Part shown: piece by piece, positions 1-49,674 of the stretch | How positions within the stretch are numbered: position 1 is the stretch's first letter | Layout of the letters: every line of letters begins with the position of its first letter | Assembly: GCA_964658305.1 (NCBI GenBank) | Contig: OZ210885.1 | Location: forward strand, 18,228,001-18,292,000 | Source: Leptogorgia sarmentosa | Taxonomy: Eukaryota | DNA: 64,000 nucleotides | Direction: 5' to 3' | Notes under the pieces: generated by a model | Databases searched by the model: none | The model's input: only the letters and a program-made list of their open reading frames with translations | What the model was told of the DNA's origin: nothing | Translations under genes and position numbers: made by a program

Positions 1-983
1 AAGATGTGTTGAGCTTCCATACACCAGGACCACGTTCCGGTAGTGTTGGAAAGGCTACACGGAGGAAGACATACGAATGGTCCGAGCGAAAAAAGGGAAA
101 AATGGATACCTCAGATACATGTTCGTGTAATGACGAGAAAATGAAAAACATATCTAGTCGGGATGCCTGGGAGCCATTGGCCCGGTGCCACGTGTAACTC
201 CGCTTATCTGGGTGCGTTAATCGCCAAGTATCGACCAGATCACACCGATCGGTCAGTGATGAAAGAGAAGCCGGCCAGTTGTATGCCCAAGGAGAGTCTG
301 GATTGCAACCTAGGCGGTCAATATGGGGGTCCACTACTACATTAAAGTCCCCACACAAAATAGTGGGAAGAGAAGGATCGATTTTGGGATGGAGGGAGGC
401 AAAAAATTCTTCACCAGCTTGTATCTTATTCGGACCATAGATGTTAGCAACCTGGATAAGAGACTCAAGATCGGTATGTTTCAAACGAGCGACAATAGCA
501 CGACCGTCTGCGTCTCTGTCTACATGTTCTATTTTAAAGCAAGGCTTGTACAGTAATGCTATAGCATTTACGCTGTGTATGGTCAGTGGCTCCGCACTCT
601 CTGCATGTTGCGTCTTCAATGCAGTCTCGTGCAATGTGGCCCGTTTTGTAACATTTTCGGCATGTTTGCGGTTGTTGGTAGTACCGTATGCATACCTGGT
701 GTTTGCCGACAAAAACGTATGATGGGATGTCCTTTTTGATTTCCATTACTATTGTTCGTTCCCCTGTGGCCAGTCCGTAGCTGTCATTTACAATTGTGAC
801 GTCGCCGGTGCGTTTGCCGTATTGGCCCAATACCGTGGTTAAGTCATGTGTCTCGCCGTCAATGGGGTAATTGTAAACATGCACCAGTGCAGTGCATTGA
901 CGGTTGAAGGTCGGGTTCGGGTGATCGAGGATAAGTCGTTGTCCTCGTGCGGTAATCTTTTTGTTGAGAAACTTGTTATGTGT
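1..983 (-). mobile_element. Rearranged Tx1-clade LINE fragment: partial ORF1 with CCHC zinc knuckles (534-983) fused to an APE-endonuclease fragment (1-545) that runs off the window
   Basis: ORF 534..1028 has CRKCYKTGHIARDC and CRECGATDHTQRKC. Bases 1-545 align with the family-A endonuclease region at 38350-38910. Confidence 0.8.
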
Positions 984-1124
984 TACCGAGACAACCCGTG
1001 GCCAGGGCGAAGCAAGCTTCAATCCCATGGCCGAGGTCCAAAAATCAGTTTAATATATGAGTTAGGACATTGCCTAACATATCAGATATTAAGCTGATAA
1101 GAACAGATACTACACTTGATCTTA
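984..1124 (-). pseudogene. U2: U2 snRNA fragment, nt 22 to about 162 (3' part of the gene split by Tx1 copy A1, truncated at stem-loop IV)
   Basis: Minus strand reads TAAGATCAAGTGTAGTATCTGTTCTTATCAGCTTAATATCTGAT...GATTTTTGG (Sm site)...GGGTTGTCTCGGTA and matches the copy at 49523-49674. Confidence 0.95.
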
Positions 1125-1548
1125 TTTTGTTTTGAACGACGACAGGCTTGTCGACTCCGACGGTGCAATGGAGCCTGGACCCAAACAAGTCGCCGCACCC
1201 AGGGGGGTCACTACAGGTGACGCGGATCGACAGGGGTGGTGAGCCCCTCCCCCGTGCCATGATGCAACCGTGAGTGGATTGCTTCAGGGATCCCTAATGA
1301 TGGTGAAATGGTCAGATGATGATGTTAAGCTAGACAATTACAACAAGAGCAGCAACCCCTACATCAAAACCTGTGCAACCCGCTCGGAACAAGTCCAAGC
1401 GAACCACAGGGCAAAAATTGGAACAAACAGACAACCCAATCCGATACAGGCAGTACAACCAATAAAGGCGACCGTCGAGACCCTAGATCACTACATAGAA
1501 CACAAAGAACGAAAAAGGGAAAAGAGGGAGGGAAGAGAGAAGGGGAAC

Positions 1549-4500
1549 TTAGGTAATAAAGTCCTGAGTAAACCGGATCCAATCCTGCTCAATGAGCGTT
1601 TGTATCAGCCCGTCAGCCAACCACTTGTGAACAAAACTGTCCCGAGGGCAGTGGCGCTTGTGCATGCACACCAGAAAGCGAAAGGTGGTCTTTGCTTTCT
1701 TCAGGGTGGTGGTAACATCTGGGGCAGTGTGGTTGAACCATTGGGCGTTGCGGCTTAGCCAAATGTTGTGTCGTAGCACACCCAGCAGGGCAGAAAAGAC
1801 AACGGGCACATGGATATTGGGAGAGAATCCAAATAAAATAGTATTCGCTGGTAGTGAAGGAGCATTCGGCCGAAATTTACGAAAAATTGACTGGAACCGG
1901 TCGAGGACCGATACCGAAAACGGGCAAGAGCAAACTCTCTTGCGCACCACAAAAGCACAGCGGGTCGACTCTCATGCCAAAACGGACCAGATGATTGGCC
2001 ATGGGTAAAATGCTGTGAAAAGACAGCCAACCAGTGTCTTGGACGGCCCGCACAAAGCGCCACAGGTGTAACGAGGCCCACGCAGCCTGCCATGGGACGT
2101 TAATGTCCCAGTCCCGATATTTCGCCACTGAGCGATGCTCAACAGCGGAAGAGCGCCGGAGCAGGGAATACCCTGTACGAGCTGTTAGCTCAGAGAGGGG
2201 AAGCAACTGTCCTGAAGGACGAGGGATGACCCAATCACTCTGCTCGTTCCTACCTTTCAGGAGGACCCACGCAGTAAACACACCCCGATAACAGGGTGGA
2301 AGTTTTTTAATCAAATATGCTGGCAGAGGATCACGAGTAAGAACGTGAGGTACCGACTGTCTAAACACGCTAGTAACAAGATGGGAAAAAAGGGATGCCC
2401 ACGGGTGGCTATGATGAATAAAAAACCAACCAAGCCATACGGCACGAAGGGACAAAAGTTTATTGTTGATGTCGATGACATTCAGGCCTCCTTCACTAAT
2501 GGGCTGGACGACTGATGTGCGAGCCATCCATTCACGCTTTTTTCCCCAAACAAAAGGAAAGACTATCTTGTTAACTTTAGTCACGACTACTTTTGGCATA
2601 TCAAAGGCAGTCGCCTGGTACCAGAACAGAGACAGACCAAGAGTATTTACGATCAGAGCTCTTCCCCGAAACGACAATTGGCGCTGTTTCCAGACACCCA
2701 ATTGCCGCTCCTTCCAGACACCCAATTGCCGCTCCAACTTCTCCACTAAGGCGTTCCAATCAGCTCCCTCTATATTTGCTATACGACAGCCCAACACGGT
2801 TATAGCGTCGCTAGACCAGTTCAGTTGTATTGGTAGGTCGGTCCGGCCCTTCCAGGACCCGAAAAGGAGACCATGACTTTTGTTAATATTGAGCTTCGCA
2901 CCGTAAGCCAGCTCGTACTGTTCAAAAAGTGAAAAGAGTGACCGCAGGGCCTGCTCAGAATGTACAATGATGGTTGTGTCATCCGCATATTGAAAAATTT
3001 TGACCGTCTCCCCATTTGGCAACTGGAAGCCGTCGACATTTAAATCTTTCTTGATGGCACACGAGATGGTTTCAGCCACAATAATGTATAATAAAGGGGA
3101 AAGAGGACAGCCCTGACGAACTCCCCGAGTGACACTAAAAGCGCCACTGGTGAACCCATTTACTAGAACATGTGAAAAGATGTTCGTATACAAGAGCTTA
3201 ACCCACCCACGAAAGGACAGACCAAAATTCATTTGCTCCAAGGCCCGCAGGATGAACCCCCAATCAACCCGATCGAAAGTCTTTTCTTGATCTAGTGATA
3301 TGATTGCACCTCCAGTATTATTATTATTACAATGGTTAACTAGATCCTGCAGGCCCTGACATTCAGACCTGAGAAGCGTCCAGGAACGCCACAGGCTTGG
3401 GATTCAGAAATGACAGAAGATAGTACTGTTTTTAGGCGATTTGTAAGTACCTTCGATAGTATTTTGTAGTCCGTGCATAGAAGGGAAATTGGTCGCCAAT
3501 TCTTGACATCTAGTCGATCATTTTTCTTGAATAGGAGAGAGATTAAACCAGTACGCTGGGAAAAAGAAAGAGCACCTCGTGCCAGGCAATTGTTGAAAAC
3601 TGCCACTAGATCAGGACCCAAAATGTCCCAAAAGGACTGATGGAACTCATAGGGTAGCCCATCTAGACCTGGAGATTTGTTACGCTTGAAAGAATTCAAT
3701 GCACGCTGGCACTCCTGTAGCGTGACCTCGCCTTCACAAAGCAGGGCTTCTTCTGCAGACAAGAATCGCTCCAAACTGTTTACGAAAAACGACTGATCCA
3801 GAGAAGATAGAATGGACGCAGAAAAAAGTTGCACATAAAAAATGCACCAAACTCGCAAAATCGCGGAGATAGATCTTACAATGGTGCCTTGTGCGTCTCG
3901 GATGCCAGTGAACAAACGCCTCGATGCTCGCACCTTCTCCTGTCTAAAGAAAAAGGCAGAGGAAGTTTCACCTTCCTCGGCCCACTGTTCCTTGCCCCGA
4001 ATGCATGCACCTTCTGCTGTGTAGTGGTGCTCGAGCTCCAATTTATCCTGTGCCTCCTTTATTAGGTGATTCACATCTTCACCGTCGGCAACTTGTTGAT
4101 GAAGATGTTCGAGGGTGGATTCTAGATTATGCATATTCGACCGCCTCGAACGAGCCTTGCCCTGAGAAAAATGACGAATGATTTCCTTCAAACGAGCCTT
4201 GCCTGCCTCCCACCAAATGCCCAGAGACGGAAAAGTAACTTTCTCAGACTGCCACGAGACCCAGAAGTTACGGACCTCCGTGCACAGAGTCTCTTCACGC
4301 AGCAAGGATGTATTGAATTTCCATGCACCAGGACCACTTTGCGGTAAAGATGGAAAGGCCGCGTGGAGGAAGACATAAGAGTGGTCCGAGCGGAAAAAAG
4401 GGAGAATGGTTACTTCCGAAACGTGTTCATGTAATGATGATGATATCCAAAACATGTCCAGTCGGGATGCCTGGGAGCCGTTGGCCCGGCGCCACGTATA

Positions 4501-5106
4501 ACCCCGCTTGTCTGGATGCGCTAGGCGCCAAGTATCGACCAGATCGCACCTATCAGTCAGTGAGGAACGAGAGGCAGGCCAGTTGTAAGCCCAAGGAGAG
4601 TCAGGATTACAACCCAATCGGTCTACATGCGGATCAGCTACCACATTGAAGTCTCCGCATAAAAGAGTGGAAAAAGAAGGGTCAATCATCTGATGTAGAG
4701 AGGAAAAAAAGTCCTCGCCAGCTTGCTTCTGATTTGGACCATATATATTTACAACTTGAGTTATGGACTCAAGGTCAACATGCTTGAAACGCACGACAAT
4801 AACCCGACCACTCGTGTCTCTGTTAATACTTTCCACGCGAAAACACGGCTTGAATAAAATCGCTACCCCCGCACTACGAGTAGTACCTGGGGAAGATTCA
4901 GCAAGATATTGTTGCAAATTATTGTGCTCGAGAGTCTCCGTCTGTAACCAAGAGAGGAATTCCTCTTCAGAGCGACTATGCATTTCTTGTAGAGCAATGA
5001 TGTCAGGTTTGGCACAATTTAGCCAGGAAAAAAGAGTTTGACGATTACGAGTATTGCATAACCCTTGAACGTTTAGGGTTATTCTGGTTACTTCTTGGTT
5101 AGCCAT
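1549..5106 (-). pseudogene. Family A copy 1 ORF2 (APE endonuclease, reverse transcriptase, C-terminal Zn finger), frameshifted
   Basis: ORFs 3340..5106 (LNVQGL, GDFN, SDH, KNWRPISLL), 1877..3241 (GVRQGCPLSP, QYADD) and 1549..1950 lie in different frames. Confidence 0.92.
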
Positions 5107-5175
5107 AATGAGTGTGTGAAAAGATGTACTGTATAAATGATATTACTATTATTATTCTATATAAACAAGGGAGAC

Positions 5176-5735
5176 TCAAAAGCTACCATCATCAGAAGTG
5201 ACACTGTCACTTGCAAAAAAGCGACGGAGAGCAAGAGTTTCTTCAGAAGCTTGATTTGCTTCTGGTCTGGAAAGATTCGAGGGGCTAGCTGCAGCAGAAG
5301 AGCTAGCACCAACCGGGGCAAAAGGAGTTAAGAGGGAGTCTGATAATTCATTTGCCATGTCTGAGAGTGAGTCATCAACAATTAGATCGATGTCTGACAT
5401 TCCCTCAATAGAAGGAGTGCCAACCATTAGAGAAGGGATATGTGGTCCCTCATCCTCCGGCAATGGAACATTCTCCGGTAATGGTCTCTCTTCGGAATGC
5501 TCAACCTCTGGTTGCATGGTCTTAGGGGGCTCTTCATCCGAAGATGCCTCTTCACTCTCCATGTGAGAGTTTTTGCGGAGAGGAGAACGTGAACGGTCCT
5601 TGTCTGCTGACTTAGAAGTCCGACGGCGCTTACAACGAGGCGGTGGGACAGGGGGGCGTTCTTTGGGCAGGGAACCACTTGCCTCTGATGTCTGGGTCTC
5701 ACTAGCTCCAGACGGAACAAGAGGCAAACCCGAAG
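5176..5735 (-). pseudogene. Family A copy 1 ORF1, C-terminal part
   Basis: Homologous to the ORF1 C-terminus of copy 4 (RSRSPLRKN...EETL...SDDGS); separated from its N-terminal part by the nested LINE. Confidence 0.85.
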
Positions 5736-5736
5736 A

Positions 5737-8700
5737 TAAAATACTTCGCAGCCATAAGCTGAATTGCATATTTTTACAAAGAAAGTTAGCTAAATGTGAT
5801 ATAGAATATAAAAAGTTTATAAGCCATTATGATGACATTCTATATAAATATATAATTTTATACACAGGATGTTTATTACTTTAATATACTATAAAATTTA
5901 AAATTATTAAAAATATAAAGTCATTTCAATAACATTAGGTAAAAGATTTGCGGCATGAAGCCACAAAAAAACTAGTTTGAAAACGATTAGTATTACATCT
6001 AGGAATTTCGAATTTCCTATCGTTTCTTAAATCATAAAAAGAAGTATGTGTAGGCAGCAGCAAACTTCGTAACTTATGATTTTCTTCAGCAACTACTGTT
6101 TGAAATAGACTAGTGCAAATATTTTCATGATGAACAGACAGTGACTCCAATCCACAACTAATTAAAGCGTCTTCATAATTAGTGTTAGGACAGATGATTC
6201 TAATAGCTCTTTTTTGTAATCTTTCCAGTTCGGAACGCAAGTATTTTGGCAATGAATAGTAAATGACAAGGATACCATAATCAATAACAGATCGAATACA
6301 TGTAACGTAAAATAGAACCAGATCATTCCGAGGGATACTGGCCCATTTGAGTTGAATCAGATAATAGATTCGTTTGGATACTTTTTTAACTACCTCTTCG
6401 ATATGTAAATTCCACGTCAGCTTTGAAGGACTTTACAACTCTAACACTTTTATTGTTAATAAGTATCGGGTTAAAATCACGAGGGACTTTTGAGAAGGAA
6501 ATACGGAGCTCCTTACATTTCTCTTCATTCAGCTTCATTTTATTGTTTTGGGACCATTGTGACATTTCATTAGCAATTGTCTGTGCTCTACTCTGTTGGT
6601 TTTTGTCAACTGTTTCCGATGCTGTCGTATCGTCCACGTATTTTCATAGGTCAGTATCAGTAATGGATAAATCATTTATCATGATTAAGAAAAGCCATGC
6701 ACCTAATATGGTGCCTTCAGGGACGCCCGAAGGTACTGCACCCCAATCTGAAAAACATCGTTGTGAAAGTTTGACTCTTTGGAATCTGTCGCTTAAGAAG
6801 TCAATAATCCAATTTATGACACTTCGTGGTAGATCTAGCTGAAGTAGCTTGTTGATCAAAATTCTATGATCGATTAGATCGAAAGCTTTTTGATAATCAA
6901 ATAAGATTATTCTAGTTGTAGAACCGGTACCGTCAAGCCCCGAGGTCCAGTTGTGCACCATACTAAGAAGAGCAAATATCGTCGATGATTTAGGAATTGG
7001 TCCGTACTGATTAGGATCGATTTTCTTCAAAACAGCGGGTTTCACATAATCTTTAACAACGAAATGCTCTGCGACCTTCGAAATATTAGGTGTTAATAAA
7101 ATGGGCCTAAGTTCTTTTTTCAGATCCTGTACCATTTTTACTTTTGGCAGCGGTGAAACATTCGCAAGTTTCCATATTGAAGGTAGGCGTTGTTGCTTGT
7201 AGGATGCATTTAGGAGTAGACTAATTGGGAGGGCAAGGATTACAGCATACTCACGCAAGAGCCAATTTGGCACTTCGTCAGGATCACCACTTTTACTAGG
7301 GTTGAGTTTTTGTAACTGTGACAAGACCCTTTCTTCCGAAACTTCTAGGAATTCTGTGTTTTCTTCTAAGTTAAGTTGTTCTAGCGGTGAAGATAATTGA
7401 TATTCTGATAAGGGCTCAAGAAAGGCTGTATTTATTCTGTTTGCTAATTCATGTTCTGATATATCTTCAAGACCAGCAATATTTATCGAATTTATTAGGG
7501 AAATATTCATTGATTTCATTCCTCCTAGGCGTTTGATTTCACTCCACCAAGCTTTAGGGTTTTCTTTCTCTTCACTGTGGACCTAGGTCATGTAGTATTT
7601 TGATTTGCACTCTTTTCTCTCACGATTGACAATATTTCGGTAATATTTAAAACTGTTGGATTTTGGACCGTAACTGAAAAAGGCTTCTTGTCTTTTTTTA
7701 ATGAATACTTTCAGTTTATCGGTCATCCAAGGAACATCTACGGAAATTTTTTTAATCCGTTTAATTGGCATGAGAAAGTCAAGACCAATAGCCACAATAT
7801 CATAGAACTGCTTCGCCATATCTTCGCAGCTTTGTGATTGAGCAAAGATTACAGGCCAATGAATTGAATGTAAAAATCTCCCCATGGCATCTTTCTTGCT
7901 CTGACGAAGATCTCGTTTGTATACAAATGTAGGTTTTGTTTTCTTCACAATGTGAGCGGGTGAAACTACAACTGTATTATGATCGGATAATCCAATTGGA
8001 GGAAGTATTTGCGGAGACTTGTAGAACTCGTGCATGTTAGTTAAAACAAGGTCAAGTATTGCTTCGCTTCGAGTTGGTGATTTAACAATTTGTTTCAATC
8101 GAAAATGCTTAATTATTTGATTCACATTAAGACGATTGAAATCCCCAGCAATGATAATACCGCAGCTGTAAAATTTTGCTTCAGTTTCACTTAATGTCTG
8201 AAATAAGTGGCTCTGCATACTGGTATCATCAGCACTAGGAGGATGATATAAGACGCCAGCTATAATTGAGGAAAATTCACGAGGAAGTCGTCTAGGTTTT
8301 ATATGGAGCCATAAGATCTCGTGTTCAGAACAACATGAAATTTCTGAAAGAATTTTGAGTTTCGTATCGCCGTCTCCGATGTAAATACAGATTCCGCCAT
8401 GGTTGTTTGTAGTTCTATCTTTGCGTATGACTGTAAATCCAGGTATGCTTACAACACTGTCTGTAATTGGGTCATAGAGCCAAGTTTCAGTTAAAAAGGA
8501 TACGTTTATCTCATTTTCCATCATAAATTCGCGAACTTCGTCTATTTTGGGGGCCAAAGATCTCACATTAGACACCATTAATTTTGGAATATAATTACTA
8601 ATCCTCTGTTTTAATGTAGTGGTATTCGGTTGATGGAATTCTGTAGTAAGGGGCTTACATGGCAATATACAATTATTTGGAAAGTCAACAATTTCGTTTA

Positions 8701-10231
8701 TGGGAATATTTATTAAATTACATTTCCCATGACAGTTCACCAATGTGGGGTTCGGTTCGGAGGATAAACTGGAATTTGCAATAATGGTTGTGGAGGGTGA
8801 GGTGGGGGAGGGGGATTGTGTGTTATTCGGGTTACAAGGTCTAAATACTTTTTCCATCCTGGGGGACGACTGTGATTCCTCGAATGTTGTAAAAAATGGT
8901 TTGGATTTTCTCTGTTGTAACTAAACATATTTTGTTTCCTACGCTTTCGGTTCTTACTTGCCTGCGATATTTGCCTGTCGGAACGATGGCTAATTCGCAC
9001 AGGGATCGCAAAAGACTCGTTTGAACTGGGTACGCCTGATTTATCCTGTTGATTAACTGCATTTCCCCCACCATTGCTCGATGATTTATTCCTGCCATTG
9101 CTCGATGATTTATTCCTGCCATGCGGCTGAGACTTTTTGTTGTAATCGTTATTGACTCGGCTTATTAGGTTGTGGTATGAGATCTTTTATACTTTGTCTA
9201 TTACGAGTTATTGCATTTACATCAGAATTAACATCCGACACCTTGTCTTCAAAGCATGACGGAGGGACGCCATGGCCAGATCTTTGTGTTGTTTCCTTGC
9301 ACAATAAGCTATCATTATAAATTTGTTCGGCTGACTTAATTGTGTTTTCTTTACCCTTTTCAATACAAACGCTATGGGTTGGCGATTTCCTTTCCTCTTC
9401 AAGTTCGACGATACGTGATCTTAAATTCAAATTGTCTGTGCGCAATTTGCATAACTCTTGTTTACTTGTTTCAATGATTTCGTCTTGTACGGAAATTCTT
9501 GTCGATAAATTTACTATTTGCGATTTAATCTCATTTTTAAATATTGAGAAACGTGTCTCCATTGAAATCAATTTGTCGTCCTCGCTTTGCTGCAATGGGC
9601 CAGAATTATTACTTATTACGTTCGTAAAATTGTTAGCAGGTTTAACAAGCGGCGAGTCGTTTATGTTTTGAAATGAAATGTCGATGAAGTCCTCAAGCTC
9701 CGTAAGAGTTGATGAATCGACAGCCGATATCGTGTCTTCTTTTGAGGTTGTGGCATTAGCAACATATTGCTCATTCAGACCCTCATCCAACGAATTGTTG
9801 TTATTATTTAAGGCATTCTCAGGCACCGTGTTTGAAATTACTGCCTCGGAACATAGACAGTACGCTGGCGAGCTTTCTTCATTCATACTAATGTCAATAA
9901 ATAGTTCTTTTAATTAGTCGCCCGTTTTGCTCTGAAAGGTTAACGTACCTCGCTCATAGTTCCAACTAAGAATCAAGTCAGTATTGGTGCTTGTAAATTT
10001 TTTATATCTGCCTCCAGGCGACGACCATGTGCCCGTTTGAACAATTACACATTTAATAAAAATTTTCAGCATTTCATAGCTGTCCGTCCATCTGATTCGC
10101 TTTCCGTTATAAGTAAAACATCCTACATCTTTATATCGGAGAAATTCCTCAACATCCCATTCATTTTGATTATTTTTAAGGGAGCTAACAGAGCCCATTT
10201 GAACATGACTGTCGGCCATTGTTATTTATTC
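5737..10231 (-). mobile_element. Nested CR1/L2-group LINE (Daphne/Crack-like), near full length, decayed
   Basis: ORF1 pieces 9914..10219 and 9149..9886 (coiled coil); APE 7583..8857 (LTETWL, AGDFN, LSDH); RT 6644..7519 and 6386..6637 (YVDD); C-terminus 5935..6252. AT-rich. Splits the host ORF1 cleanly when compared with 54690-54720. Confidence 0.85.
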
Positions 10232-10948
10232 TGGCGAACTGCCCGAACTTCCGGAGTTCTCGGCAGGCTCAGAGAGCACCGTGTCCAACAAATTGGTGAT
10301 GGTCTCCCGTACCTGCTCGTGCTCGTTCTCTTGGCCCACCATGGGCCGTACCTCACTACCAGATGTTTCATGGTTAGCCTGTGTTGACCCTACAACAGCA
10401 GGCCGAGATAGAGCGGGGCAAGCCGACTGATTGTGGCCTTCCTGTCCACACCCGAAACAAGGACGTTTTTGGACCTTATGATACACGAAGCACCAGTGGC
10501 CAGCAATTCGCATGCAAAAAGGAATGGGTTGTTTTATTTCCATTAGCACATGCCTGACCCCAGTATAGATATGAGAATACACCTCGGATGAGATCTTGCG
10601 AATCTCACCAAAGCCACTGAGGACTTTGGAAATTTCTTCATCCGGGACCCTGTAAGTCAGGCGGGTAACATTAACCCAGGTGCATTTGGATACCGGCCGG
10701 AATTCGACAGGGAGGCCCCGCACGGTTAAACCCGTATGTTCGGCAACCTCCATGTTCCGAGCTCCCTTAAAGGTCACGCGGAACCGACCAGGCGCCATCA
10801 TCACGACAGCCTCAAACACAGAAGTATAATCATCGACTTGCCTGCTGAACTCATCGATGACCTCCTTTACATTTATTCTGTGCGCCTCGATGCTGTCAGA
10901 AATGATGACATCGCAGGTGCGATTGACGTGAGGAATCATCCTCACCAC
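10232..10948 (-). pseudogene. Family A copy 1 ORF1, N-terminal part (RRM-like region plus CCHC knuckle)
   Basis: MIPHVNRTCDV...CFGCGQEGHNQSAC, homologous to ORFs 39694..40491 and 54408..55217. Confidence 0.88.
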
Positions 10949-10959
10949 ACTGGATTAGA

Positions 10960-11620
10960 TGCGAGAACCAAAGTCTCGAAAAAAAAAAAGAAAAGAAAAG
11001 AAAAAAGGCTTAGCCTAAATCGAGAACCAGAGTCTCGAAAAACAAAAAGAATAGAAAAGAAAGAGGCTTAGCCTAAATCGAGAACCAAAGTCTCGAAAGA
11101 CAAATTAATCGAATTCGAGAACCAAGGAGAAAAGGTTTAACCTAAATCGAGAACCGAAGTCTCGAAAAACAAAAAGAAAAGAAAAAGGCTTAACCTAGAT
11201 CGAGAATCAAAGTCTCGAAAAACAAAATAACCTGAATCGAAAACCAAAGTCTTGAAAAACAAAAAGAAAAGAAAAGAAAAAGGCTTAATCTAAGTCGAGG
11301 ACGAAAGTCTCGAAAAACAGATTAACCTAATTCGAGAACCAAAGTTTCGAAAAACAAAATAACCTAATTCGAGAACCAAAGTCTTGAAAAACAAAAAGAA
11401 AAGAAAAAGGCTTAACCTAGATCGAGAACCAAATTCTCGGAAAACAAATTAACCTAATACGAGAACCAAAGTCTCGAAAAACAAAATAACCTAATTCGAG
11501 AACCAATGTCTCGAAAAACAAATTAACCTAAGTCGAGAACCAAAGTCTCGAAAAACAACTTAACTTAACCAAGAACCAAGTCTCGATAACTAACTTAACT
11601 TAACCGAGAACCAAGTCTTG
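10960..11620. repeat. Family A 5' UTR array of CGAGA-ACCAA(A)G-TCTCG hairpin units with variable A-rich spacers
   Basis: Roughly 17-20 units visible; homologous arrays at 40504-41290 and 61804-62160. Confidence 0.9.
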
Positions 11621-11794
11621 AAACAGATAAGGAAAGGAAAAAGAAGAGAGGAACGAATCCCTCCAGAAAAGAAGAGAAGTGGAGCCTGCCTAGCGTTTCC
11701 CCCTAGAGGGCCTCGCAGTCAGGCACAGTCACGCGGTGTACCACCAAGGCCAAAGCCAAGGAGGCCTGAGCCGACCGACACAATCCAAAGGAAC

Positions 11795-11975
11795 AGACAG
11801 GACAGCACAGGGACGGACACCACTGGGAGACACCACAGCGCAGGTACGGACAGCACAGGAATGGACAGCACAGGAAAGGACAGCACAGGAAGACACCACA
11901 GCACAGGAACGGACCAGACAGCACAGGAATGGCCAAGACAGGACAGGACCACCAAACTGAACAGCACCACGGACC
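11795..11975. repeat. About 15-bp GACAGCACAGGA-type repeats in the family A 5' UTR
   Basis: Direct repeats visible; shorter versions at 41455-41550 and 62325-62360. Confidence 0.75.
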
Positions 11976-12039
11976 ATGGGAAGGATATCTTCTGCAGCAT
12001 AAACCAGACTTCAGTGAGAAGACCACCAACTGTCAAAGT

Positions 12040-12065
12040 TCTTAGCCAAAAGGCCGAGAAGTGAT
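12040..12065 (-). pseudogene. U2: U2 snRNA nt 1-26 (5' part of the gene split by A1)
   Basis: Minus strand ATCACTTCTCGGCCTTTTGGCTAAGA (one mismatch to canonical ATCGCTTC). Confidence 0.93.
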
Positions 12066-24511: not shown

Positions 24512-24950
24512 GACTTCATGGCGCATACGATTACCTTTTATACGCTGCAATCGCGAGGAATGCTTGTGGAACGAATGCATGGGGATGAGTTTGTCTTTCG
24601 ATGGATGGATCGATCGATCTCTCAGACTGCACCGTGTTTGCACGTTCCGAGAATTCTCGACCATATTCAATACGAGTTTACAAAAAAATCAAAGAATGTA
24701 AATCTCATGAACAGCGATACTGCTTTGTTGGCCAACGAGCTACCAAGACAATTATAACATGATTGTGTTAGGCTGCTTACCATGCAAGTATAATTCGTGG
24801 TCGGTCATCCACACTGAATGCTTCATATATACGTATCTCCTGCGAAATGCCTGATCGCGGCGATGATCTATCTGTAAAGGCAAGAATAATTTGTCAGAAT
24901 TTTGAACTGATAGTGAGTGAGAAATCTTCCCCCAATAATGAAATTGGGGG
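24512..24950 (-). promoter_or_regulatory. U2-U1 intergenic spacer including the U1 promoter region
   Basis: Highly similar to 49067-49522. Confidence 0.8.
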
Positions 24951-25102
24951 AAGTGGGCCGTACTCGGAGGTAGTGCAATACCGAGGCAACCCATGGCCAG
25001 GGCGAAGCAAGCTTCAATCCCATGGCCGAGGTCCAAAAATCAGTTTAATATACGAGTTAGGACATTGCCTAACATATCAGATATTAAGCTGATAAGAACA
25101 GA
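24951..25102 (-). pseudogene. U2: U2 snRNA nt 39 to about 190
   Basis: TCTGTTCTTATCAGCTTAATATCTG..., Sm site GATTTTTGG, stem-loop IV CTCGGTATTGCACTACCTCCGAG. Confidence 0.95.
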
Positions 25103-25730: not shown

Positions 25731-28168
25731 AACATACAAACCAATCCAAAACAGGCAGTACCACCAGCAAAGGCAACCACCCAATCGTCATGGTGACACA
25801 TTACATGCAAATGAAAGTGTTATGACCACTACCACAGCTCATCTGGGAATATAACATCATCATCTTCAGGAGGCACAACACCAAACAACCCTCCTGCTAA
25901 CCATAATTCTGAATACCGGTCCCTGGGACAATGTCTGCGCTGCATACGTAGCGTAAAACGCAACATGGATTTGGTGGAAGAAAGTAGATCCGCATGTTCT
26001 ACTGGGATCTGATCGAATCGCCATCCGTTGCGTGCTACCCATATTCTGTGTTTGATGATACCCAAGAGGCAAGGAAAAATTGGTGGAAGTTTCTCCGCCT
26101 GTTTGTACCCGATTAAAATCTGCGCTGGAGTGGGGGCAGTGACACGAAACCTCGCACGATGTAACAGTGAGGAGTACCAGTACTTGCCCACAGTGATCCA
26201 CCAACATTCCAAATCGCATCAAGCGGTTTGCAGTCGGCAAGATGCCATGGGCGATCAACCAAGCCGTGTCACACACTGGTCTGATGAACCGCCAAAGATG
26301 GAGGTTCATCCACACCGTACGCCATTCAATGTCTAGGCCCCAAGACCGGTACCGCTGCACACACTTGTGCTCTTCTTGGTCAAGTTTAGAGAGAACCCGG
26401 TAAACAAATCTGGCAGACAATTCAGTCAAAGGACTAACTTGTGCACCAATTCCTTTTATTACGATAACCCCATCCGCCCTTTCGCGATGGAGTCGGAACC
26501 AGGCCTTCATTATTGATTTATAAAAAGGAGGAAGAAGATCTATTGCATATGGAGGAGGCGACGGCAGCATAAGTATGTCTTCTATACTTCGCCCGCTGAA
26601 CGCTATACGGAGATGGTATCTAAAAAAGAACATCCCTGGAGCATCAGGGTTTTCAACCAACCTATGTACCCAAACTGCATGGAATGAGGTGACCTTCCTT
26701 TGTATATCAACTATCCCTAGACCCCCTTGTCCAAAATGTTGCGTTGCTGAGGTCCGAGCCAGCCATTCTCGGCGCTTTCACCAGACAAAGGGGAACACTA
26801 CCTTCTCCATAGCAGTCACCACCTGTCCAGGCAGAGCCAGGAAAGACAGGTGGTACCAAAATCTACTATACCCGAGCATGTTGGCTACAAGGGCACGCCC
26901 GTGGAAGGAAAGCTGCCAAGACTGCCAAGAGGCAATCACTTTGGTGAGCTCCCCAACTTTGGAATCCCAATCCTCATCTTCCGACTGGTTGAAAAGTGTG
27001 GAACCGATAATTTTTATGTTAGCAGACGACCAATCTAGATGTACAGGTAAGTCGGTACGTCTGACCCATGTGCCTATAAGCAACCCATGTGACTTTGTCA
27101 CATTCAATTTTGCTCCGGATGCCTTTTCGTATCGCTCAAAAACTGAAAAGACAGCTTTTAGAGCTGTATCCGACATTACAATTAGTGAGGTGTCGTCTGC
27201 GTACTAACAAATTTTTGCCCGACGTGTACGGGGCAGTGGAATGCCGTCTATCAAGGGGTGTGCTCGAATCGCACATGCAAGCGTCTCAGCCATTAATACA
27301 TAAAGCAGGGGTGACAATGGACACCCCTGACGTACTCCACGGCTGACAGAAAACCAAGCAGATGGCGTGCCATTAACTAGGACACAGGAGAAAATGTCGG
27401 TATAAAAAAGTTTGATCCAACGCCAAAATGAGTCCTCAAAATTCATATTTTGCAACACTCGCTGCAGATATTGCCACTCGACACGATCAAAGGCTTTTTC
27501 TTGGTCTAGTGACAAAATGGCTCCACCCAATCCCCTACGATTAACATCTTGTACAATATCTCGCAACAAACGATTATTGACGACAGGATTACGTCCAGGA
27601 ATACCACAGGTTTGGTCAGAGTGAATGAGATGACCCAGTACCTGTAGAAGACGGTTGGCTATTGCTTTAGCTGCTATTTTATAATCAACACAAAGAAGTG
27701 TTATTGGGCGCCAGTTCTATATTTCCAGTCTATCCCCACGCTTATATAGTAACGTGATTAATCCCTGCCTCTGCGATGCTGATAACCTACCCTCTCTGTA
27801 AGTGATTCATAACTTGAACATAGTCATTTCCCATCACAGGCCGAAAGCGCTGGAAAAATTCTGCTGGAAATCCATCTATCCCCGGAGATTTGGATGATGC
27901 CATCCCATCTAGAGCAGCCTTGCACTCTGCTGATGTAAGCTCTCCTTCACACGATTGCGCCTGTGCTAGAGATAACTTCAGCACTATCTGGTCTAGGAAG
28001 AACTCCTGTTCTCTCTCATCGAGCCTTAATGACATAAACAGTTTGGCATAAAAGGAGACCCATGCACCTGCAATGGCCATTGCGGAATAAACAATCTTTC
28101 CAGACAGATCTTTAATTGCCGTGAACAGGCGTTGCTCCCCTCGTTTCTGCTCCAGACGGAAAAAATAG

Positions 28169-28482
28169 TATACTATTTCTCAATGCTCGACTTCATGCTC
28201 AGTTTATTTAAGGTATGACAATGTTGATCAGCGCCCCACGCCAAGCTGAAAGCTTGGCGTGGAGTTGCGGCGCACGACTCACCCGAATTCTGGGGTGGAT
28301 GGGTGGGTCGCTCGCCACTTGCTTCTCAACGGTGTAACTGAACAAGAGCCGAGTTTATGGCGTTTTCCACCTTTTATAGCTTTGTTACCCATTCATGCGC
28401 ATAATCTATGCCATTATGCTTGATAATACCTTTGTTTGTCCTTAATTTGTTGTTCGCATATCATTACGAGCATTGAAAATAG
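28169..28482. mobile_element. About 310-bp non-autonomous insertion in family C ORF2
   Basis: Interrupts the EEG..SSAY/FFRLE motif; imperfect inverted ends (CTATTTCTCAATGCTCG / CGAGCATTGAAAATAG); AAAATAG at both junctions. Confidence 0.65.
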
Positions 28483-30499
28483 GCAGAGGAAACTTTACCT
28501 TCTTCAGCCCATTGTACCTTTGATCATATTCGCGCCCCGCGTGCCTGCTGGCGATGCGTCTCCTCGAGCTCAGCCCGGACGTCCGCCATCATGCCGCTCA
28601 CATCCTCCCCTCTATCCGCTCTACGCTTCAGACAAAGCAGTGTATTTTCTAACGAAGAGATTCGCTTACGTAAAGAGGAAGCCTGCTTTCGAGAGTATGC
28701 CCGTATTTTGGATTGTAACCTGGCCTTACCCGCGTCCCACCATGCAGAAAGAGAAAAAAACGAATCTTTCTCAGCTTGCCATGACTCCCAGAACTGGGTA
28801 ACCATGAGTATAAATGAAGAGTCTTTGAGGTGGCTTGTATTAAACTTCCACACTCCTGTGCCTCTACTAATCGCATTTGGGACAGAAAACTTCAAATAAA
28901 TACAGGAATGATCTGAACGAAAGAACGGAAAGATCCCGACTGAAACTATCAATTGGAGAAAAAAGGTGGATACCCAAAACATATCTAGTCGGCTCGCTTG
29001 ACTATTGTTGGGACGTTGCCATGTAAATTCCATTGCATCCAGATGCTTGGACGTTTGCAAATTTTTTCCATCATTTTTGGGGTCCTGAGGGGTTTCCAAT
29101 GTCGTATCCATGTTTTCGTCATTTGTGTCAAGCTTGCTTGACTCCTCATTTTCATCATCTGGGGGTAAAGGGAGTAGTTCAGCTGGTGTACTAAATAGGT
29201 CTTGGGAAGGGTCGAGCCTGGTAGTCTTAACACTGCTGGCCGCTTCCCCCCTGCCTTCCTGCTCTTCTGAGCTGTTCGAACTGTTGGTGCTACTCTCTTC
29301 ACACCGGGGTCTTTTGGTAGAAGGGGGAGACGCTTTTGATCTATCAACGTTATCCTCCCTTTCCACTAAATTATTGCCCTGCATTACCTCTGGAGGCTTG
29401 TCCTGTTCATTAGCCAAGGTGGCAGCCTTTACTACCTGCTCCTCTATTGCTGTGCTCTCACCTTCAACTGGCTCATTAATCTGTTGATCTCTAACCTCTG
29501 TAGCCGTGCCTGTCAGATCAGAAACCGGCACAGTACCTGCAGTTGGGGTAATACCTTCATCAGTGTTAGGGCCCTGTAGGCCTTGCTGCACCGCTTCAGC
29601 GAATGAAGTCAGGGTTGGACGAGGAGGAGGTACTTCCTCTCTTCGTTTTAGTATCTGGTCACTTGCCTTTTCGGCGTTCTCAGTAGAGGTGGTTGCCTGG
29701 CCTCGAGTGCCCTGTGGGCATTGCGCCCTCGTATGACCCGTTTTATTACACCCAAAGCAAGTGGGAATTTGTCCAGGGTAGAATATGTTGCACCAATGAT
29801 CTGCCACCCGAATGGATGACGGAATTGTCGTCTTTACCTCAACCAATGCATGCCTTATACCTATATGCACACCTTTGTATGTGTCTGCCTTTATATTGAC
29901 TACTTTGCCATATGGCTTAAGGGCCTCTCCTATGGCTTCATTTGGTATCCCATAGCTAAGTCGGGTGATAGTCACCCACTTGGCAGATCGGCACGGATTA
30001 AATTTTACCGGGGAATTCCGGAAGGAGAGACCTAAATGCGACACTTCTTCTCGGGCTCGTTCGGATCACCAGGTTACCCTCACCTTCCTAGGTGACAATA
30101 GCACAAAGGCTTCAAACAAAGCCTCAAAATTACTTGGGACTTGGTCCCGGAAGGAGTCAACTATGGCCTTAATGCTGACTTTGGCCTGGCCTTCTCCTAA
30201 GGGCAGATCAACATCTGCTGTGCGATTGGCGAACGGTATTTGCATTTTACTACTTTTTATATTCAAACGAACGTTTGAGAAGCGGGCCTCATGCACGCTA
30301 TTTTTTTAACTATTTTGGAAAGGAAGAAAAAAGTTGTAGTATGGTTTAACTAGTTAAGCCTCTACAGAAGACTAAAATTTTAATATATATGAGGTTTTAT
30401 AGCGAAAGGATGAGAACCGTTGTCTCACCGAAAGCAACTAGTAATCCAGGGAAGTTAATTTAACACACTAAAATAATGATAGTATACCTTAAGCTTTGA

Positions 30500-32128
30500 T
30501 TTTATTTTATCTATACTGCTCCCAGTTATTACTAGAATAGTTAACACCTCGTTAGTTACCGCTATCATGCCTACTGAACTAAAGAATGCTGTTCTTACTC
30601 CTAATTTAAAGAAAACTTCACTTGACCATGAAGTTTATTCAAACTTTAGGCCCATTTCAAACCTGAAATTTATTTCTAAAATAGTGGAGAAGTCTGTTTC
30701 ACATCAACTTACAGATTATCTGCGTGGAAATGATTTAGAAGAAAGATTCCAGTCGGCATATAAAGGGTTTCATAGCACTGAAACTGCTCTTGTTAAAGTA
30801 CACAATGATATTGTCTCGGCAATTGACAACCAGGAACATGTAATTCTGGTACTGCTTGACTTGTCTGCTGCGTTTGATATGATAGACCACAAAATACTGT
30901 TATCCAGGCTATCGAGCCGTTTTGGTATCAAGGGAAAGGTATTAGGTTGGTTTGAATCTTACCTGAAAGATCGCAAGCAGACCGTCAGTGTAAATGGTGT
31001 TACATCCTCAACTAGAAAAGTCATTTCTGGGGTACCTCAGGGGTCTGTACTAGGGCCAATCCTATACCTGCTGTATACGTCACCACTCGGAGACATTGTT
31101 CGAAGCCATGGCCTATCCCATCACTTTTATGCTGATGATTCACAGTTGTATATCACTTTCAAACCAAGCAATGAGATAGCAACTATATCAAATATTGAAG
31201 CTTGTATCAATGACATTAATAATTGGATGATTTCTAATAAATTAAAACTTAATAAAGGAAAAACGGAACTTCTTGTAATAGGATCGAATTCTCGTTGTCG
31301 TCCATTGGTTGAAAGTATCACTGTTGCTGGAGAATATATAAATGGATCAAAAACGGTTAGAAACCTTGGATCAGTCTTTGATGAAAGCATGAATCTAGAG
31401 CAACATGTAAAGGATGTGTGTAAATGTGCTTTCTACCACATTCAGAATATATCAAAGATAAGAGACTGTCTTACTCAGAACGATACTGAGACGTTGGTAC
31501 ACGCATTTATATCAAGCAAACTTGATTTCTGTAACGCATTGCTTTATGGCCTACCACAGTGTGTGATAGATAAGCTTCAACGTGTTCAAAACTCGGCGGC
31601 GCGTCTTGTAACTCGAACTCGTAAATATGAACATATCACACCAGTACTCATGGATTTACACTGGTTACCAGTAGAGCAGCGTATCAAATACAAGATACTG
31701 TTATTAACATACAAATCGTTCAATGGAATGGCACCTAAGTATCTGAGTGATCTTCTTCATTGTCATAATCCAACGAGACAACTTAGGTCAGCATCAAAAC
31801 ATCTGCTTGTTCCACCTAAAGTAAATCTTAAACGATATGGTGAAAGATCCTTCAAATCTGCCTCCCCAAGACTATGGAACTCTCTGCCTGAGAATGTTCG
31901 AGCTAGTCCATCACTTGACTCTTTTAAAACTAGACTAAAGACTTTCCTTTATAAAGAAGCTTTTAATTAAGAGTCTTATTTTCTTAATATTATATATAAT
32001 TATATATAGACTAGATCTCTAACGGTTGTATTGTAAATATGTAAATATTAATATTTTATCAAATTATAAAGCGTCTTTGAGCTTCGGGAAACGGCGCTAT
32101 ATAAATCTATTAAATTATTATTATTATT
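30500..32128 (+). mobile_element. 5'-truncated L2-clade LINE nested in the family C 5' UTR
   Basis: Open RT frame, then a terminal stem-loop and (TAT)n tail at 32070-32128. The 5' boundary is approximate. Confidence 0.85.
30567..31970 (+). CDS. L2/CR1-type reverse transcriptase, C-terminal part of ORF2
   Basis: FRPISNL, LDLSAAFD, GVPQGSVLGP, FYADDSQLY, HITPVLMDLHWLPV. Confidence 0.9.
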   Translation: MPTELKNAVLTPNLKKTSLDHEVYSNFRPISNLKFISKIVEKSVSHQLTDYLRGNDLEERFQSAYKGFHSTETALVKVHNDIVSAIDNQEHVILVLLDLSAAFDMIDHKILLSRLSSRFGIKGKVLGWFESYLKDRKQTVSVNGVTSSTRKVISGVPQGSVLGPILYLLYTSPLGDIVRSHGLSHHFYADDSQLYITFKPSNEIATISNIEACINDINNWMISNKLKLNKGKTELLVIGSNSRCRPLVESITVAGEYINGSKTVRNLGSVFDESMNLEQHVKDVCKCAFYHIQNISKIRDCLTQNDTETLVHAFISSKLDFCNALLYGLPQCVIDKLQRVQNSAARLVTRTRKYEHITPVLMDLHWLPVEQRIKYKILLLTYKSFNGMAPKYLSDLLHCHNPTRQLRSASKHLLVPPKVNLKRYGERSFKSASPRLWNSLPENVRASPSLDSFKTRLKTFLYKEAFN

Positions 32129-32728
32129 AAATTAAAGAAAAAACAAAAAGCAAAAACCTAGTAATAATTAAACAAATAATACCTAGACGAGGACTAACAG
32201 CCTCGCAACAAAATGAATGACCTAGAATTGTTCCACGAAGACCTAAAGCTTCGAGTGAACGTAATTACAAAAACCTAAAAACAATAATCCAAAACGAGGA
32301 CCAACAGCCTCTAAACAAAAAATACAATACCTAAACGAGGACCAAATGCCTCAAAACAAAAACAAAAATTAATTGCTAAACTCGGACCAAATGCCTCCCG
32401 AACAAAAATGGGCAGAAAAATAGCGGAGGGTCTCCAACCCCCGTGGCCAGAAACAAAGAAAAGAGAGAGTGACAGGCTTCAGCCAAGCACTTCCACCTGA
32501 CCAGATGCAACGAAAAAGTGGAAAAGGGTCCACCGCCTTAGAGTAACCCCCTAGAGGGCCCCTCAAACAGGCACAACCACGAAAAACAAGGAGGACCAGT
32601 GCAGGACCACTCGACCACCACAGGACACCAGGACCAGCAGGGTGCTCTCTTCTTCACCAGGCTTGATCTTTGATCTTCGTTCTTCTGTCTTCTTCTTTCA
32701 GCTTTACCTTCTTTACCACCAGCAGAAT

Positions 32729-32734
32729 ATCTTA
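32729..32734 (-). other. 6-nt U2 target remnant (TAAGAT, U2 nt 22-27) between the family D 3' end and the family C 5' end
   Basis: TCGTTCAACTCAAAA|TAAGAT is the same junction as at 50339/50340. Confidence 0.7.
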
Positions 32735-35700
32735 TTTTGAGTTGAACGACGTAAGGTCCCGATCATTGCTGATCTGGTTCCGATGGTGCAATGGAACCTG
32801 TACCTTGTGCAGACGCCGCACCCAGGGGGTTGCTACACAGCAAGCAGACCAACAGAGAGTACGACCCTCTCCCCCGTGCCATGAAACGACTCGTGAATGG
32901 CCCAGACGATCAAGTGCTAAGCGCTGTCCCGCCTGGGGATCCCTAACCCTATGATGGTGATTGAATGAAGTAGATGATCTGAAACTGAAGTCGATGACGA
33001 CATGAGCACCCCTGAGTCCACCAGATACCCGTGCAATCCTTGGGAGTTAGACTCGAAAGAACCACGGGCCAAAATTGCGAAACATTACGAGGCCACTATA
33101 CACACCGCATATCGCGGCGAGACAATTAAACATATTACAGGACATACGATATTACTATTTCACGAGTTGTACGAACATTGCCTCGACAGTAAGGAAACAG
33201 TGTACACACAATTAGACTGCCCCATAGACAGCAGTACAACCAATCAAGGCGACCCCCGTATGGTGACAGTAACACAAAAAACAACACACAAGATGGTCAA
33301 GTGCGAAAGTCCTGTCGCAGAATGAGAACGTTGTCGGGAGTGAGGATCCCGATGGCCCCCTTTGCCAGCCATTCACGAGCAAACAGCTCTGGTTTGCAAT
33401 TACGATGTTGGACATGTAGCAGGAATTGAAAAGTTGACTTGACACGGGATAGGATAAAGTCCACATCCGGTTTGGTGGAGTCGAAACGGGAAGCATTCCG
33501 GGTCAACCATAATTGGTGGCGGATAACACCTAACATCGCTGAGTAGGCGACAGGAATTTTGCGAGCTGGATGAAAACCGAAAAGGAGTTCTTGGTCGGTA
33601 GGATATTTGCTGTGCAGAAGGTACTGTTGGAAACGTGCTAAGAACCAGTCGAGCACGTCGATGGCAACTTGACACTCCGTGAATAGATGGACGAGAGTCT
33701 CTGGGCAGCCACAGTGACACTCCCCCAACACTTGTATTCCAAATCGCTTTAGACGATCAGCTGTAGGAAGAATTCCATGGGCAGAAAGCCACGCAGTGTC
33801 CTGTACAGATCGCACATAGTTCCACAGTGATAAATTATGCCACACCCACTTCCACTCTTTAGCTGGCCCTAAGGTATGTGAATGTTCGAAGCAGCGATGG
33901 GAGAAAGCCTTTCGAAGAAGATCATAGGCTAGCTTGGCGCTTAGGTGGTCAATGGTTATATCCGGTGGTTTCGGTGCGCGTACTTTCCAGATCTGTTCCG
34001 AAAGGCTAGGATTCAGTGCTACCCAGGAACAGAGGATGGATTTGTAGAATGCCGGTAGAGCGTGTAAAGAACGGGTAGCGGGGCGTGGATGTAATAGGAT
34101 GTCAGTCATTGATGCTTTGTTGGGAAAAGCACGCATTGCGAAATATTCAAAAAAACCATGCCAACCATGACAAGGACCAAGTAGGTACCGTTTGATCCAT
34201 AAACAATGTAGAGACTGTATCTTACGTCCAACATCAACAGCACCAAGACCACCAGATCCCACAGGTTGGGTCACCGAATTTCGGGCTAACCATTCTCGTT
34301 TCTTGCCCCAAATATATGAAAATGTCAATGAGTTGATCGTTGCCAGTATCTTCGACGGTATCTCTTGGAAGGTGGCGAGATACCAGAAAAGACTCAACCC
34401 AAGAGTCTTTGTTACCATAGTACGCCCACGAAAGGAAAGGTCACGACGCTTCCAGGATTCCAACAATTTGGTGTATTTGTCGAGGGGGGATTGCCAATCC
34501 TTTGAACCGTCATTGCTGATACGACTCCCGAGGACACGAATACAATCTGCTTTCCAATTGAGTTCCACAGGGAAGGTTGACCGAGTACGCCAGGCACCAA
34601 GCAGAAGGCCCTCACATTTACTTGGATTGAGCTTGGCTCCCGATGCTGATTCGTACCGCTTACATGTTGCAAAGAGCTGCAGGATAGATTGATCTGACAT
34701 GACCAACGCCGTAGTATCATCAGCATATTGGCATAACTTTTGTCGAGAGCCATCAGGAAGAGTAAAACCATCAATGCTCGTGTCCTTCTCGATGGTAATA
34801 GCCAAAGCCTCGATCACTAGGATATAAAGTAACGGGGAAAGTGGGCAACCTTGACGGACACCCCTGGAAACAGCAAATGGTTTGGATATAAAGCCATTGA
34901 CAATAACCGCTGAGGAGATATTGGTGTAGAGGAGGCTCACCCACCGTTGAAATGATGGACCAAACCCCATGGCGGATAAAACGTGTGACATGAACGGCCA
35001 TTCCACTCGGTCAAAGGCTTTTTCTTGGTCTAAGGATATAATAGCCGCCGACAAATCTTTCTCATTCGCATACTGAACAATGTCTTTGATTAAACGGATA
35101 TTTGCAGCCGATAATCGACCAGGTATACCGGCAGTCTGAGACAGGGAGACAACCGACGATATGACGAGCAGGAGGCGATTTGCTAAAGCCTTCACGGCGA
35201 TTTTATAGTCTGTATTGAGAAGGGTAATGGGGCGCCAGTTCTTTGGGTTAGTACGTTCGTTTTTCTTATATAACAATGTAATTAAACCTTGCCGTTGAGA
35301 TGTGGACAAGCATCCTTGGTCATACGCTTCATTAAGGACATCTGTGAGGTCTTTTCCCAGTACGCCCCAAAAGTTGATGTAGAACTCAGCTGGAAGGCCA
35401 TCCAACCCAGGGGTTTTGTTCCGTGACATGTTCTTTACCGCTTCAAAGCACTCTTCCACCGTTAGATGTCCTTCACAAAGTTTCTGGTCGTGCGACGACA
35501 AAGTGTGCTCGATATGGGATATGAAAAAGTCAATGTCGTACTCCGTTAAGGGTTGTGAAGTAAATAAATCAGAGTAGAATTCGCGAAACACTTCAAGTAT
35601 GCCATGCGATGTCATTGCCAACGAACTGTCTGGCCTAGCAATGGATTGGATCACAGACTTGGTCGCTCGACGTTTTTCCAGTTGAAAAAAGTATGAAGTG

Positions 35701-37870: not shown

Positions 37871-37879
37871 TAAAATAGT

Positions 37880-42045: not shown

Positions 42046-42088
42046 CACCGGCCTCTTAAGTGTGCGAGGCAATCAAACACTTATAATC

Positions 42089-49066: not shown

Positions 49067-49522
49067 GACTTCATGGCGCATACGATTACCTTTTATACGC
49101 TGCAACCGCGAGGAATGCTTGTGGAACGAATGCATGGGGATGAGTTTGTCTGTCGATAGATGGATCGATCTATCTCTCGGACTGCACCGTGTTTGCACGT
49201 TCCGACAATTCTCGACCCGCATATTCAATACGAATTAACAAGAAAATCAAAGTATGTAAATCTCATGAACAGCGATGCTGCTTAAGCTTTGTTGGCCAAC
49301 GAGCAGCTACCCAAGACTATTATAACATGAATGTGTTAGGCTGCTTACCATAATTTGTTCGTCGTCGGTCATCCGCACTGAATAATGATGTCATTATATA
49401 CGTGTCTCTTGCCAAATGCCGGTTCGCGGCGAGGATCTATCTATAAAGTCAAGAATAATTTGTTAGAATTTTTTTGAACTGATAATGAGTGAGAAATCTT
49501 CCCCCAATAATGAAATTAGGGG
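49067..49522 (-). promoter_or_regulatory. U2-U1 intergenic spacer / U1 promoter region
   Basis: Repeat of 24512-24950. Confidence 0.8.
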
Positions 49523-49674
49523 AAGTGGGCCGTACTCGGAGGTAGTGCAATACCGAGACAACCCGTGGCCAGGGCGAAGCAAGCTTCAATCCCATGGCCG
49601 AGGTCCAAAAATCAGTTTAATATATGAGTTAGGACATTGCCTAACATATCAGATATTAAGCTGATAAGAACAGA
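49523..49674 (-). pseudogene. U2: U2 snRNA nt 39 to about 190
   Basis: Same sequence as 24951-25102, with Sm site and stem-loop IV. Confidence 0.95.

Follow-up and report, generated by a model that had tools for sequence, protein, structure and literature searches.

The 64,000-nucleotide stretch of Leptogorgia sarmentosa DNA analysed here (the window) is part of a tandem array of U1 and U2 snRNA genes packed with non-LTR retrotransposons (Table 1). Rfam matches, every one of them on the minus strand, locate one complete U1 gene along with three pieces of U2, and local searches add pieces spanning U2 nt 1-26, nt 1-19 and nt 22-38 and U1 nt 3-52; no intact U2 gene lies in the window. Conserved upstream regions are present in three copies of the U2 type and two of the U1 type, and each of the three U2 upstream regions opens into an element of a single lineage, the A type. 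Within this lineage, the reverse transcriptase (RT) frame of A2 is open over 927 aa, the boundary between A3 and A2 is a deletion joint, and A4 contains both a foreign segment near 60.1-61.8 kb and a 4686-bp tandem duplication (52250-56935 and 56935-61620, 99.98% identity) that is either very recent or an assembly artefact. Unrelated LINEs are nested in A1 (~5760-10230, minus strand) and in B (~30480-32000, plus strand). The 5' UTRs of A1, A3 and A4 carry degenerate tandem repeats of ~40-45 nt (10959-11640, 40554-41290 and 61805-62161, respectively, all on the minus strand), upstream of which lies the motif GGCCCTCTAGGGGG, found also in B.

Further rearrangements and insertions mark the rest of the array. 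Deletion-like joints fuse a U2 upstream region to U1 nt 52 (12227/12226) and the interior of element E0 to U2 nt 162 (984/983). A BEL/Pao-type LTR retrotransposon (~41826-48510, minus strand) with DUF1759 and DUF5641 domains and end repeats that are 91% identical separates the U1 gene from the U2 upstream region that follows, and a short satellite-like tandem repeat (62771-63054) is located upstream of the last U2 upstream region. The U1-inserted element C is flanked by U1 nt 1-13 on its 5' side (24511-24499) and by U1 nt 3-52 on its 3' side (12276-12227), in an apparent 11-bp duplication over the U1 5' end. With one copy in evidence, C is possibly the representative of a U1-specific family. 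A segment nested in C (~14800-21350) is bounded by 255-bp inverted repeats (14810-15063 and 21090-21344, 95% identity) and is probably a DNA transposon.

Table 1. Features of the snRNA gene array, in order of window position.
Feature	Position	Strand	Remark
E0, 5'-truncated member of the A1/A4 subfamily	1..983	-	Joined to U2 nt 162; exits the window
U2 nt 22-162	984..1124	-	3' flank of A1
A1, apparently full-length	1125..12039	-	ORF1 and APE/RT ORF2, with stops and frameshifts
3'-tail hairpin of A1	1152..1175	-	
10-mer TCCATTGCAC	1163-1172	-	In A1
APE endonuclease domain of A1	4372..5106	-	L1-EN fold
U2 nt 1-26	12040..12065	-	5' flank of A1; U2 upstream region beyond, to ~12225
Element C, APE/RT, other branch	12277-24498	-	Inside a U1 gene
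10-mer TCCATTGCAC	12316-12325	-	In C
U2 nt 39 to end	24948..25102	-	Preceded by a Utopia-like 3' tail (~25103-25165)
B, third subfamily of the same lineage	25750..32728	-	3' tail lost; joined at its 5' end to U2 nt 27; lower end approximate
U2 nt 22-27	32729..32734	-	Between A2 and B
A2, distant subfamily	32735..37865	-	5' end lost; 3' end at U2 nt 22
3'-tail hairpin of A2	~32775-32798	-	
10-mer TCCATTGCAC	32786-32795	-	In A2
A3, 5' part only	37866..41555	-	Joined to the U2 upstream region at nt -52
U2 nt 39 to end	49520..49674	-	After the Utopia-like remnant
Utopia-like element, 5'-truncated	49675..50322	-	At U2 nt 38/39; R2 protein match, E 4e-08
U2 nt 22-38	50323..50339	-	Between A4 and the Utopia-like remnant
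A4, 5'-truncated	50340..62362	-	
3'-tail hairpin of A4	~50367-50390	-	
10-mer TCCATTGCAC	50378-50387	-	In A4
U2 nt 1-19	62363..62381	-	5' flank of A4; U2 upstream region beyond

Junctions at U2 nt 22

As the original prediction had it, three 3' junctions in the window run from element sequence directly into TAAGAT, the U2 parts beginning at 1124, 32734 and 50339. The junction pattern, TCGTTCAANNCAAAATAAGAT, has exactly three matches (1119-1139, 32729-32749 and 50334-50354), all on the minus strand and all free of mismatches where two were allowed, against a mean of 0.01 and a maximum of 1 in 100 shuffles. All copies of the lineage with an intact 3' end (A1, A2 and A4; 3/3) join U2 at nt 22, and at the A2 junction (32734) the next element begins after just six bases of U2 (nt 22-27). 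The 5' junctions are of four different kinds, falling after U2 nt 26 (A1), nt 27 (B), nt 19 (A4) and nt -52 (A3), which indicates separate insertions. Protein identity amounts to 79-83% between A1 and A4 and to 44-49% (ORF2) between A2 and either of these, and the ORF2 DNA of A1 and A4 is 74-77% identical, so that the copies cannot descend from one recently duplicated insertion. At the DNA level, A2 and A4 are more alike in their tails (68%) than in ORF2 (55-62%), and with the A2 tail nearer to A4 than its ORF2 is, an old exchange of tails is possible.

The bases at the junctions define the target only within a small range. TAAGA both ends the U2 nt 1-26 piece (12065-12040) and opens the 3' flank of A1 at 1124, which bears out the 5-bp target-site duplication put forward for this element as an apparent duplication, but not its exact size: the element ends in CAAAA and the target begins with TAA, T, TA or TAA may be assigned to either, and the nick hence falls between nt 21/22 and nt 24/25 and the A1 duplication spans 2-5 bp. 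The proposed 2-nt target deletion at A4 is confirmed, since the 5' flank stops at nt 19 (62363), the 3' flank begins at nt 22 and nt 20-21 are absent; A4 is 5'-truncated and its 5' junction shows a 2-base microhomology, so that a deletion of up to 4 nt is possible on that side.

A history devoid of targeting, in which unequal crossover and gene conversion spread one or two chance insertions through the tandem array, is highly improbable. The array has been rearranged, as the A3/A2 and U1/U2-upstream deletion joints and the tandem duplication in A4 attest, and the high depth of one tail type in public sequencing runs could equal array amplification. Three subfamilies with 44-83% protein identity and four 5' junctions, however, are impossible to obtain from one insertion, and the junction bases have remained unchanged although the elements diverged.

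The flanks of the A4 subfamily were examined further by comparing the A4 3' junction with contigs from four public runs (at most three samples, from two studies). The junction was matched by 28 contigs, 21 of which were listed, and among those listed 16 cross the A4 end. Random flanks would have spoken against a U2 target, but all 16 listed crossing contigs enter U2 at nt 22 and none shows another flank. The U2 sequence displayed in these 16 ranges from 5 to 17 nt: eleven contigs reach nt 38, where the reference leaves U2, one runs across the whole junction, two reach nt 35, one reaches nt 32 and one stops at nt 26. At least 31 letters on both sides are present in 3/16 (record 6 of X1, record 17 of X4 and record 19 of X5), the other listed crossing contigs being short unitigs that stop at graph forks. 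Dispersed copies would be expected to give loose ends at the element end, and none of the nine rows of the complete loose-end table lies there. Contigs omit rare variants, and the human-match filter could have removed only U2-bearing contigs, a bias against the U2-flank result. X4 (organism B) carries the same single locus as X1 and adds no independent evidence from another species, so the test refers in effect to one species and to A4-like tails. Crossing contigs in X1 have depths of 448-5930, compared to about 100-115 for pieces identical to A1, which suggests tens of copies as a rough figure, depth not being a copy number. Many related subfamilies are seen in public runs as well, and longer Utopia-like copies in these four.

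A second insertion site is in use in the same genes. One gene copy displays both, 17 nt apart, in the order A4, U2 nt 22-38, Utopia-like element, U2 nt 39 onwards; the Utopia-like remnant encodes the C-terminus of a restriction-like endonuclease and agrees with Utopia in its defining features, and a second Utopia-like tail joins U2 nt 39 at 25102. It is conceivable, if very unlikely, that the A-type elements were themselves cut in at nt 38/39, carrying U2 nt 22-38 as their 3' end, and that the nt-22 junction is a fossil. At A4 and in the X1 and X5 contigs U2 does stop exactly at nt 38 and gives way to other DNA, and the nick is impossible to place from sequence alone where RNA and target share bases. 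Yet the DNA that follows nt 38 at A4 is a Utopia-like element with its own 3' end at nt 39, and hence a second insertion; the A1 flank is unbroken to nt 162; A2 is followed by nt 22-27 only; and the 5' junctions (nt 26, nt 27 and nt 19) cluster near nt 22, not nt 38. A U2-carrying ancestor, moreover, would still have required a join to U2 at nt 22.

Known U2 elements and the A-type endonuclease

Keno was reportedly described by Kojima and Fujiwara in 2004. In the available portions of later accounts it is, like the elements of the window, a U2-specific LINE with an AP-type endonuclease whose insertion destroys the U2 copy, and it is also recorded from hydra and lancelet (PMC4640811, PMC4494074, PMC6136364). 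According to the accessible text of PMC4640811, the 3' flank is the same in Utopia and in Keno and begins at U2 nt 39, and the excerpted PMC6136364 gives the Keno flank with identical sequence. As far as these descriptions allow a comparison, the Keno flank begins with TCTGTTCTTATCAG (U2 nt 39), whereas that of the window elements lies 14-17 nt earlier, at nt 22 or at the latest nt 25; they share with Keno the APE endonuclease and the insertion in U2, but not the flank. The claim that the nt-22 site is distinct from the Keno/Utopia site is upheld on the basis of the same portions of PMC4640811, and these two families do insert downstream, at nt 38/39 (near nt 37-38 in the original prediction), with the distance of about 17 nt becoming 14-17 nt given the ambiguity of the nick. 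Utopia resembles the window elements in occupying U2 arrays, with precise 3' and variable 5' junctions and occasional tandem copies (PMC4640811, in the portions available), and differs from them in its restriction-like endonuclease and its nt 38/39 site, A1-A4 and B having an N-terminal APE domain and the nt-22 site. A cnidarian host of Utopia was not found in the accessible text or supplements of PMC4640811, and the text of the supplements is without Hydra, Nematostella, Acropora, Keno, Tx1 or the junction string.

The Tx1-Mar and SINEU elements of crocodilians are likewise Tx1-clade elements associated with U1 or U2 sequence, but in the available text of PMC4494074 their snRNA heads were carried into a DNA transposon, whereas the U2 pieces of the window are real genes. 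U2 upstream sequence precedes the 5' junctions and the U2 remainder follows the 3' junctions, an arrangement other than the U2-headed one of the SINEU or Tx1-11_Crp type. The legend to Fig. 3 of PMC4494074, as accessible, gives U2, U5, 5S and satellites as the targets known for Tx1, with no positions. The diversity of targets in the Tx1 group is already known, and the nt-22 site in U2 is possibly the new part. No family at U2 nt 22 was found in a search of partially available papers. The accessible part of PMC8869645 has nothing further on U2. The nt-22 junctions likely mark a separate, possibly undescribed, targeting specificity within U2; that some database already lists the site is a minority possibility, though a substantial one. 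Single-ORF elements with restriction-like endonucleases are said, in an excerpted review, to have been surveyed by Fell et al. in 2025.

The frames of A1 and A2 match the Pfam families Exo_endo_phos, RVT_1, zf-RVT and zf-CCHC, and the order of domains is that of Tx1, with an N-terminal APE, an RT and a C-terminal zinc-binding domain in ORF2 and a zinc knuckle in ORF1. The nearest solved relative is LINE-1 ORF2, and named close homologues come from the octocoral Paramuricea clavata only. Tx1 is here a putative label drawn from the architecture, in that the RT tree contains no named Tx1 or Keno reference. This tree, midpoint-rooted and with SH-aLRT as its sole support measure, has 121 rows (116 of 120 hits covering the region, plus five window pieces) and places A1, A2, A4 and B in one 74-row clade (SH-aLRT 98), with the U1-inserted element C outside it and A2 as a long basal branch of unsure placement.

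A model of the A1 endonuclease built from 70 sequences (pLDDT 95; a single-sequence AlphaFold model with pLDDT 32 was discarded) has the LINE-1 endonuclease as its best match (TM-score about 0.79). The A1 enzyme resembles human LINE-1 endonuclease (PDB 1vyb, 7n8s and 2v0r) in fold and hairpin position and differs from it in that the loop following the conserved DR is longer by about seven residues and the hairpin is shorter; LINE-1, unlike the window elements, inserts genome-wide and has a poly(A) tail. The lineage-specific loop of A1 reads GCNPxSPWAYNW and its hairpin WRRANGSQASRLD. A1, A2, A4 and B have in common the pattern xRxNxxQxS in a hairpin that corresponds in position to betaB6-betaB5 of L1-EN, and the clade hairpin with its conserved Gln aligns to T192-S202 of L1. 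The WAY loop is present in A1-A4 and E0 and lacking in element C, the three subfamilies share their endonuclease loops, and the extra loop together with the conserved hairpin occurs in 54 of the 98 homologues with a scored loop. As reported in the accessible part of PMC1950540, grafting the Tx1L hairpin at this position changes the nicking specificity of L1-EN, and nicking is less strict in vitro than integration is in vivo.

An alternative is that site choice lies largely outside the nuclease. A loosely specific enzyme, nicking T/AAGA (nt 22/23) in the manner of L1, would then have its site set by RNA pairing and by transcription local to the array, with U2 read-through at the 3' end of the transcript pairing to the nicked target and array transcription keeping the particle near its targets. 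The T|AAGA of the sense strand comes close to the poly(T)-A junction for which L1-EN has a preference, and RNA-target pairing has been proposed as an added filter (PMC1950540, available portions); the tails have no polyadenylation signal, and the element end CAAAA is ambiguous with the TAA of the target. Against this, the lineage-wide extra loop and conserved hairpin suggest selected DNA contacts, and a loose nuclease should leave off-target copies, of which there are none among the listed contigs. Such an account is considered unlikely.

The question of which loops set the specificity of APE-type nucleases has been raised before (PMC1950540, in part), and related endonucleases with targets at U2 nt 22 and U1 nt 3 provide a natural pair for testing specificity loops. 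A second site 14-17 nt away from the first, beside Utopia-like and U1-targeting elements, means that a gene of 190 nt can host several specificities, as rDNA does. Because U2 nt 1-60 is highly conserved, the system is also relevant to site-specific gene insertion tools.

Probable insertion route and 3' tails

Target-primed reverse transcription is the established insertion route of such elements. The reading we favour, and hold to be fairly probable, is that an L1/Tx1-type lineage occupies U2 genes with 3' ends at nt 22, likely through this route after a nick by its AP-type endonuclease. The enzyme would nick the antisense strand of U2 between nt 21 and 25, and the nicked target would prime reverse transcription on the element RNA. 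A second cut about 5-6 nt downstream (near nt 26-27) would generate the short duplication in the apparently full-length copies A1 and B, and the truncated copies A4 and A3 would have joined by microhomology with loss of target (2 nt and about 73 nt). The element is presumed to be transcribed from the remaining U2 promoter and to read through into the downstream U2 remainder. Such read-through would account for the lack of both AATAAA and a poly(A) tail, would supply RNA pairing with the nicked target and may be the simplest way to obtain a 3' end for priming. Each insertion destroys its U2 copy but leaves the nt 38/39 site in the remainder, where Utopia-like elements re-use it.

AATAAA and ATTAAA are absent from the three 3' tails (A1, A2 and A4), which also have no A run, and the tails of the Utopia-like elements differ in these respects. 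A1/A4 and A2 show conservation over the final ~150 nt, and each of the four elements whose 3' end is intact has a single copy of a 10-mer, TCCATTGCAC, at about 40-55 nt from that end (four occurrences in the window versus 0.14 expected); this 10-mer was chosen from A1, A2 and A4, element C being the sole independent case. In the A-type consensus the 10-mer opens an 11-nt loop, starting with ATTGCAC, above a C-G closing pair and a 6-bp stem. One two-sided change is found in this hairpin, which is not above shuffles (171/500), and when A2 and C are each folded as single sequences, part of the ATTGCAC stretch is paired. Over the final 146-150 nt the folding is no stronger than in shuffles (z 0.28, 0.73 and -0.47), and a shorter terminal stem yields z values of -2.0 (A1), -1.2 (A2), -0.5 (A4) and -3.2 (C). 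Derivation of the tail from U1 or U2 was also considered and found no support, with 16/16 alignments falling within shuffles (best z 1.23) and no Rfam match to U1 or U2.

In the available part of PMC5992148, Drosophila SNF binds the loops AUUGCACCUC (U1) and AUUGCAGUACC (U2) and favours a C:G closing pair. The tail 10-mer appears similar to such a U1A/SNF binding loop, a resemblance only. On a broader and rather doubtful view, an old clade (70+ protein clusters) would home to nt 22 with its RNA in the guise of an snRNA: the U2 promoter would drive its transcription, it would stay unpolyadenylated, and a U1A/U2B''-type loop ~45 nt short of the 3' end, found in element C too, would recruit a host snRNP protein. 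The recruited protein might block polyadenylation or return the particle to the snRNA gene cluster. The loop common to the tails offers a testable link between the elements and the host snRNP machinery, and the interest of the system would grow if either the clade-wide specificity or the snRNP-mimic tail proved true.

Wider collections were scanned too, and they yielded no flanks from distant species. The tail motif gave one match in viral, five in metagenome and nine in genome sequences, none of them a homologous tail; all 15 were rejected as chance matches with no similarity to the window or to ORF2. The junction pattern has no match in viral contigs, and protein-pattern scans of viral contigs returned seven distant RT/EN loci (24-34% identity), which were left out of the comparison. 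In the protein cluster P0030, 13 of 14 members lie on contigs of three sizes, and in P0054, a member of the clade, all 15 listed members lie on contigs of different sizes, a spread that is ambiguous, fitting dispersal or merely many samples. Within the window, a 3'-UTR motif of 50-75 nt with ~75% identity recurs on the minus strand in A1 (~1440-1475), C (~12530-12580), B (~25730-25805) and A4 (~50670-50720), and thus spans both branches, that of A1, A4 and B and that of C.
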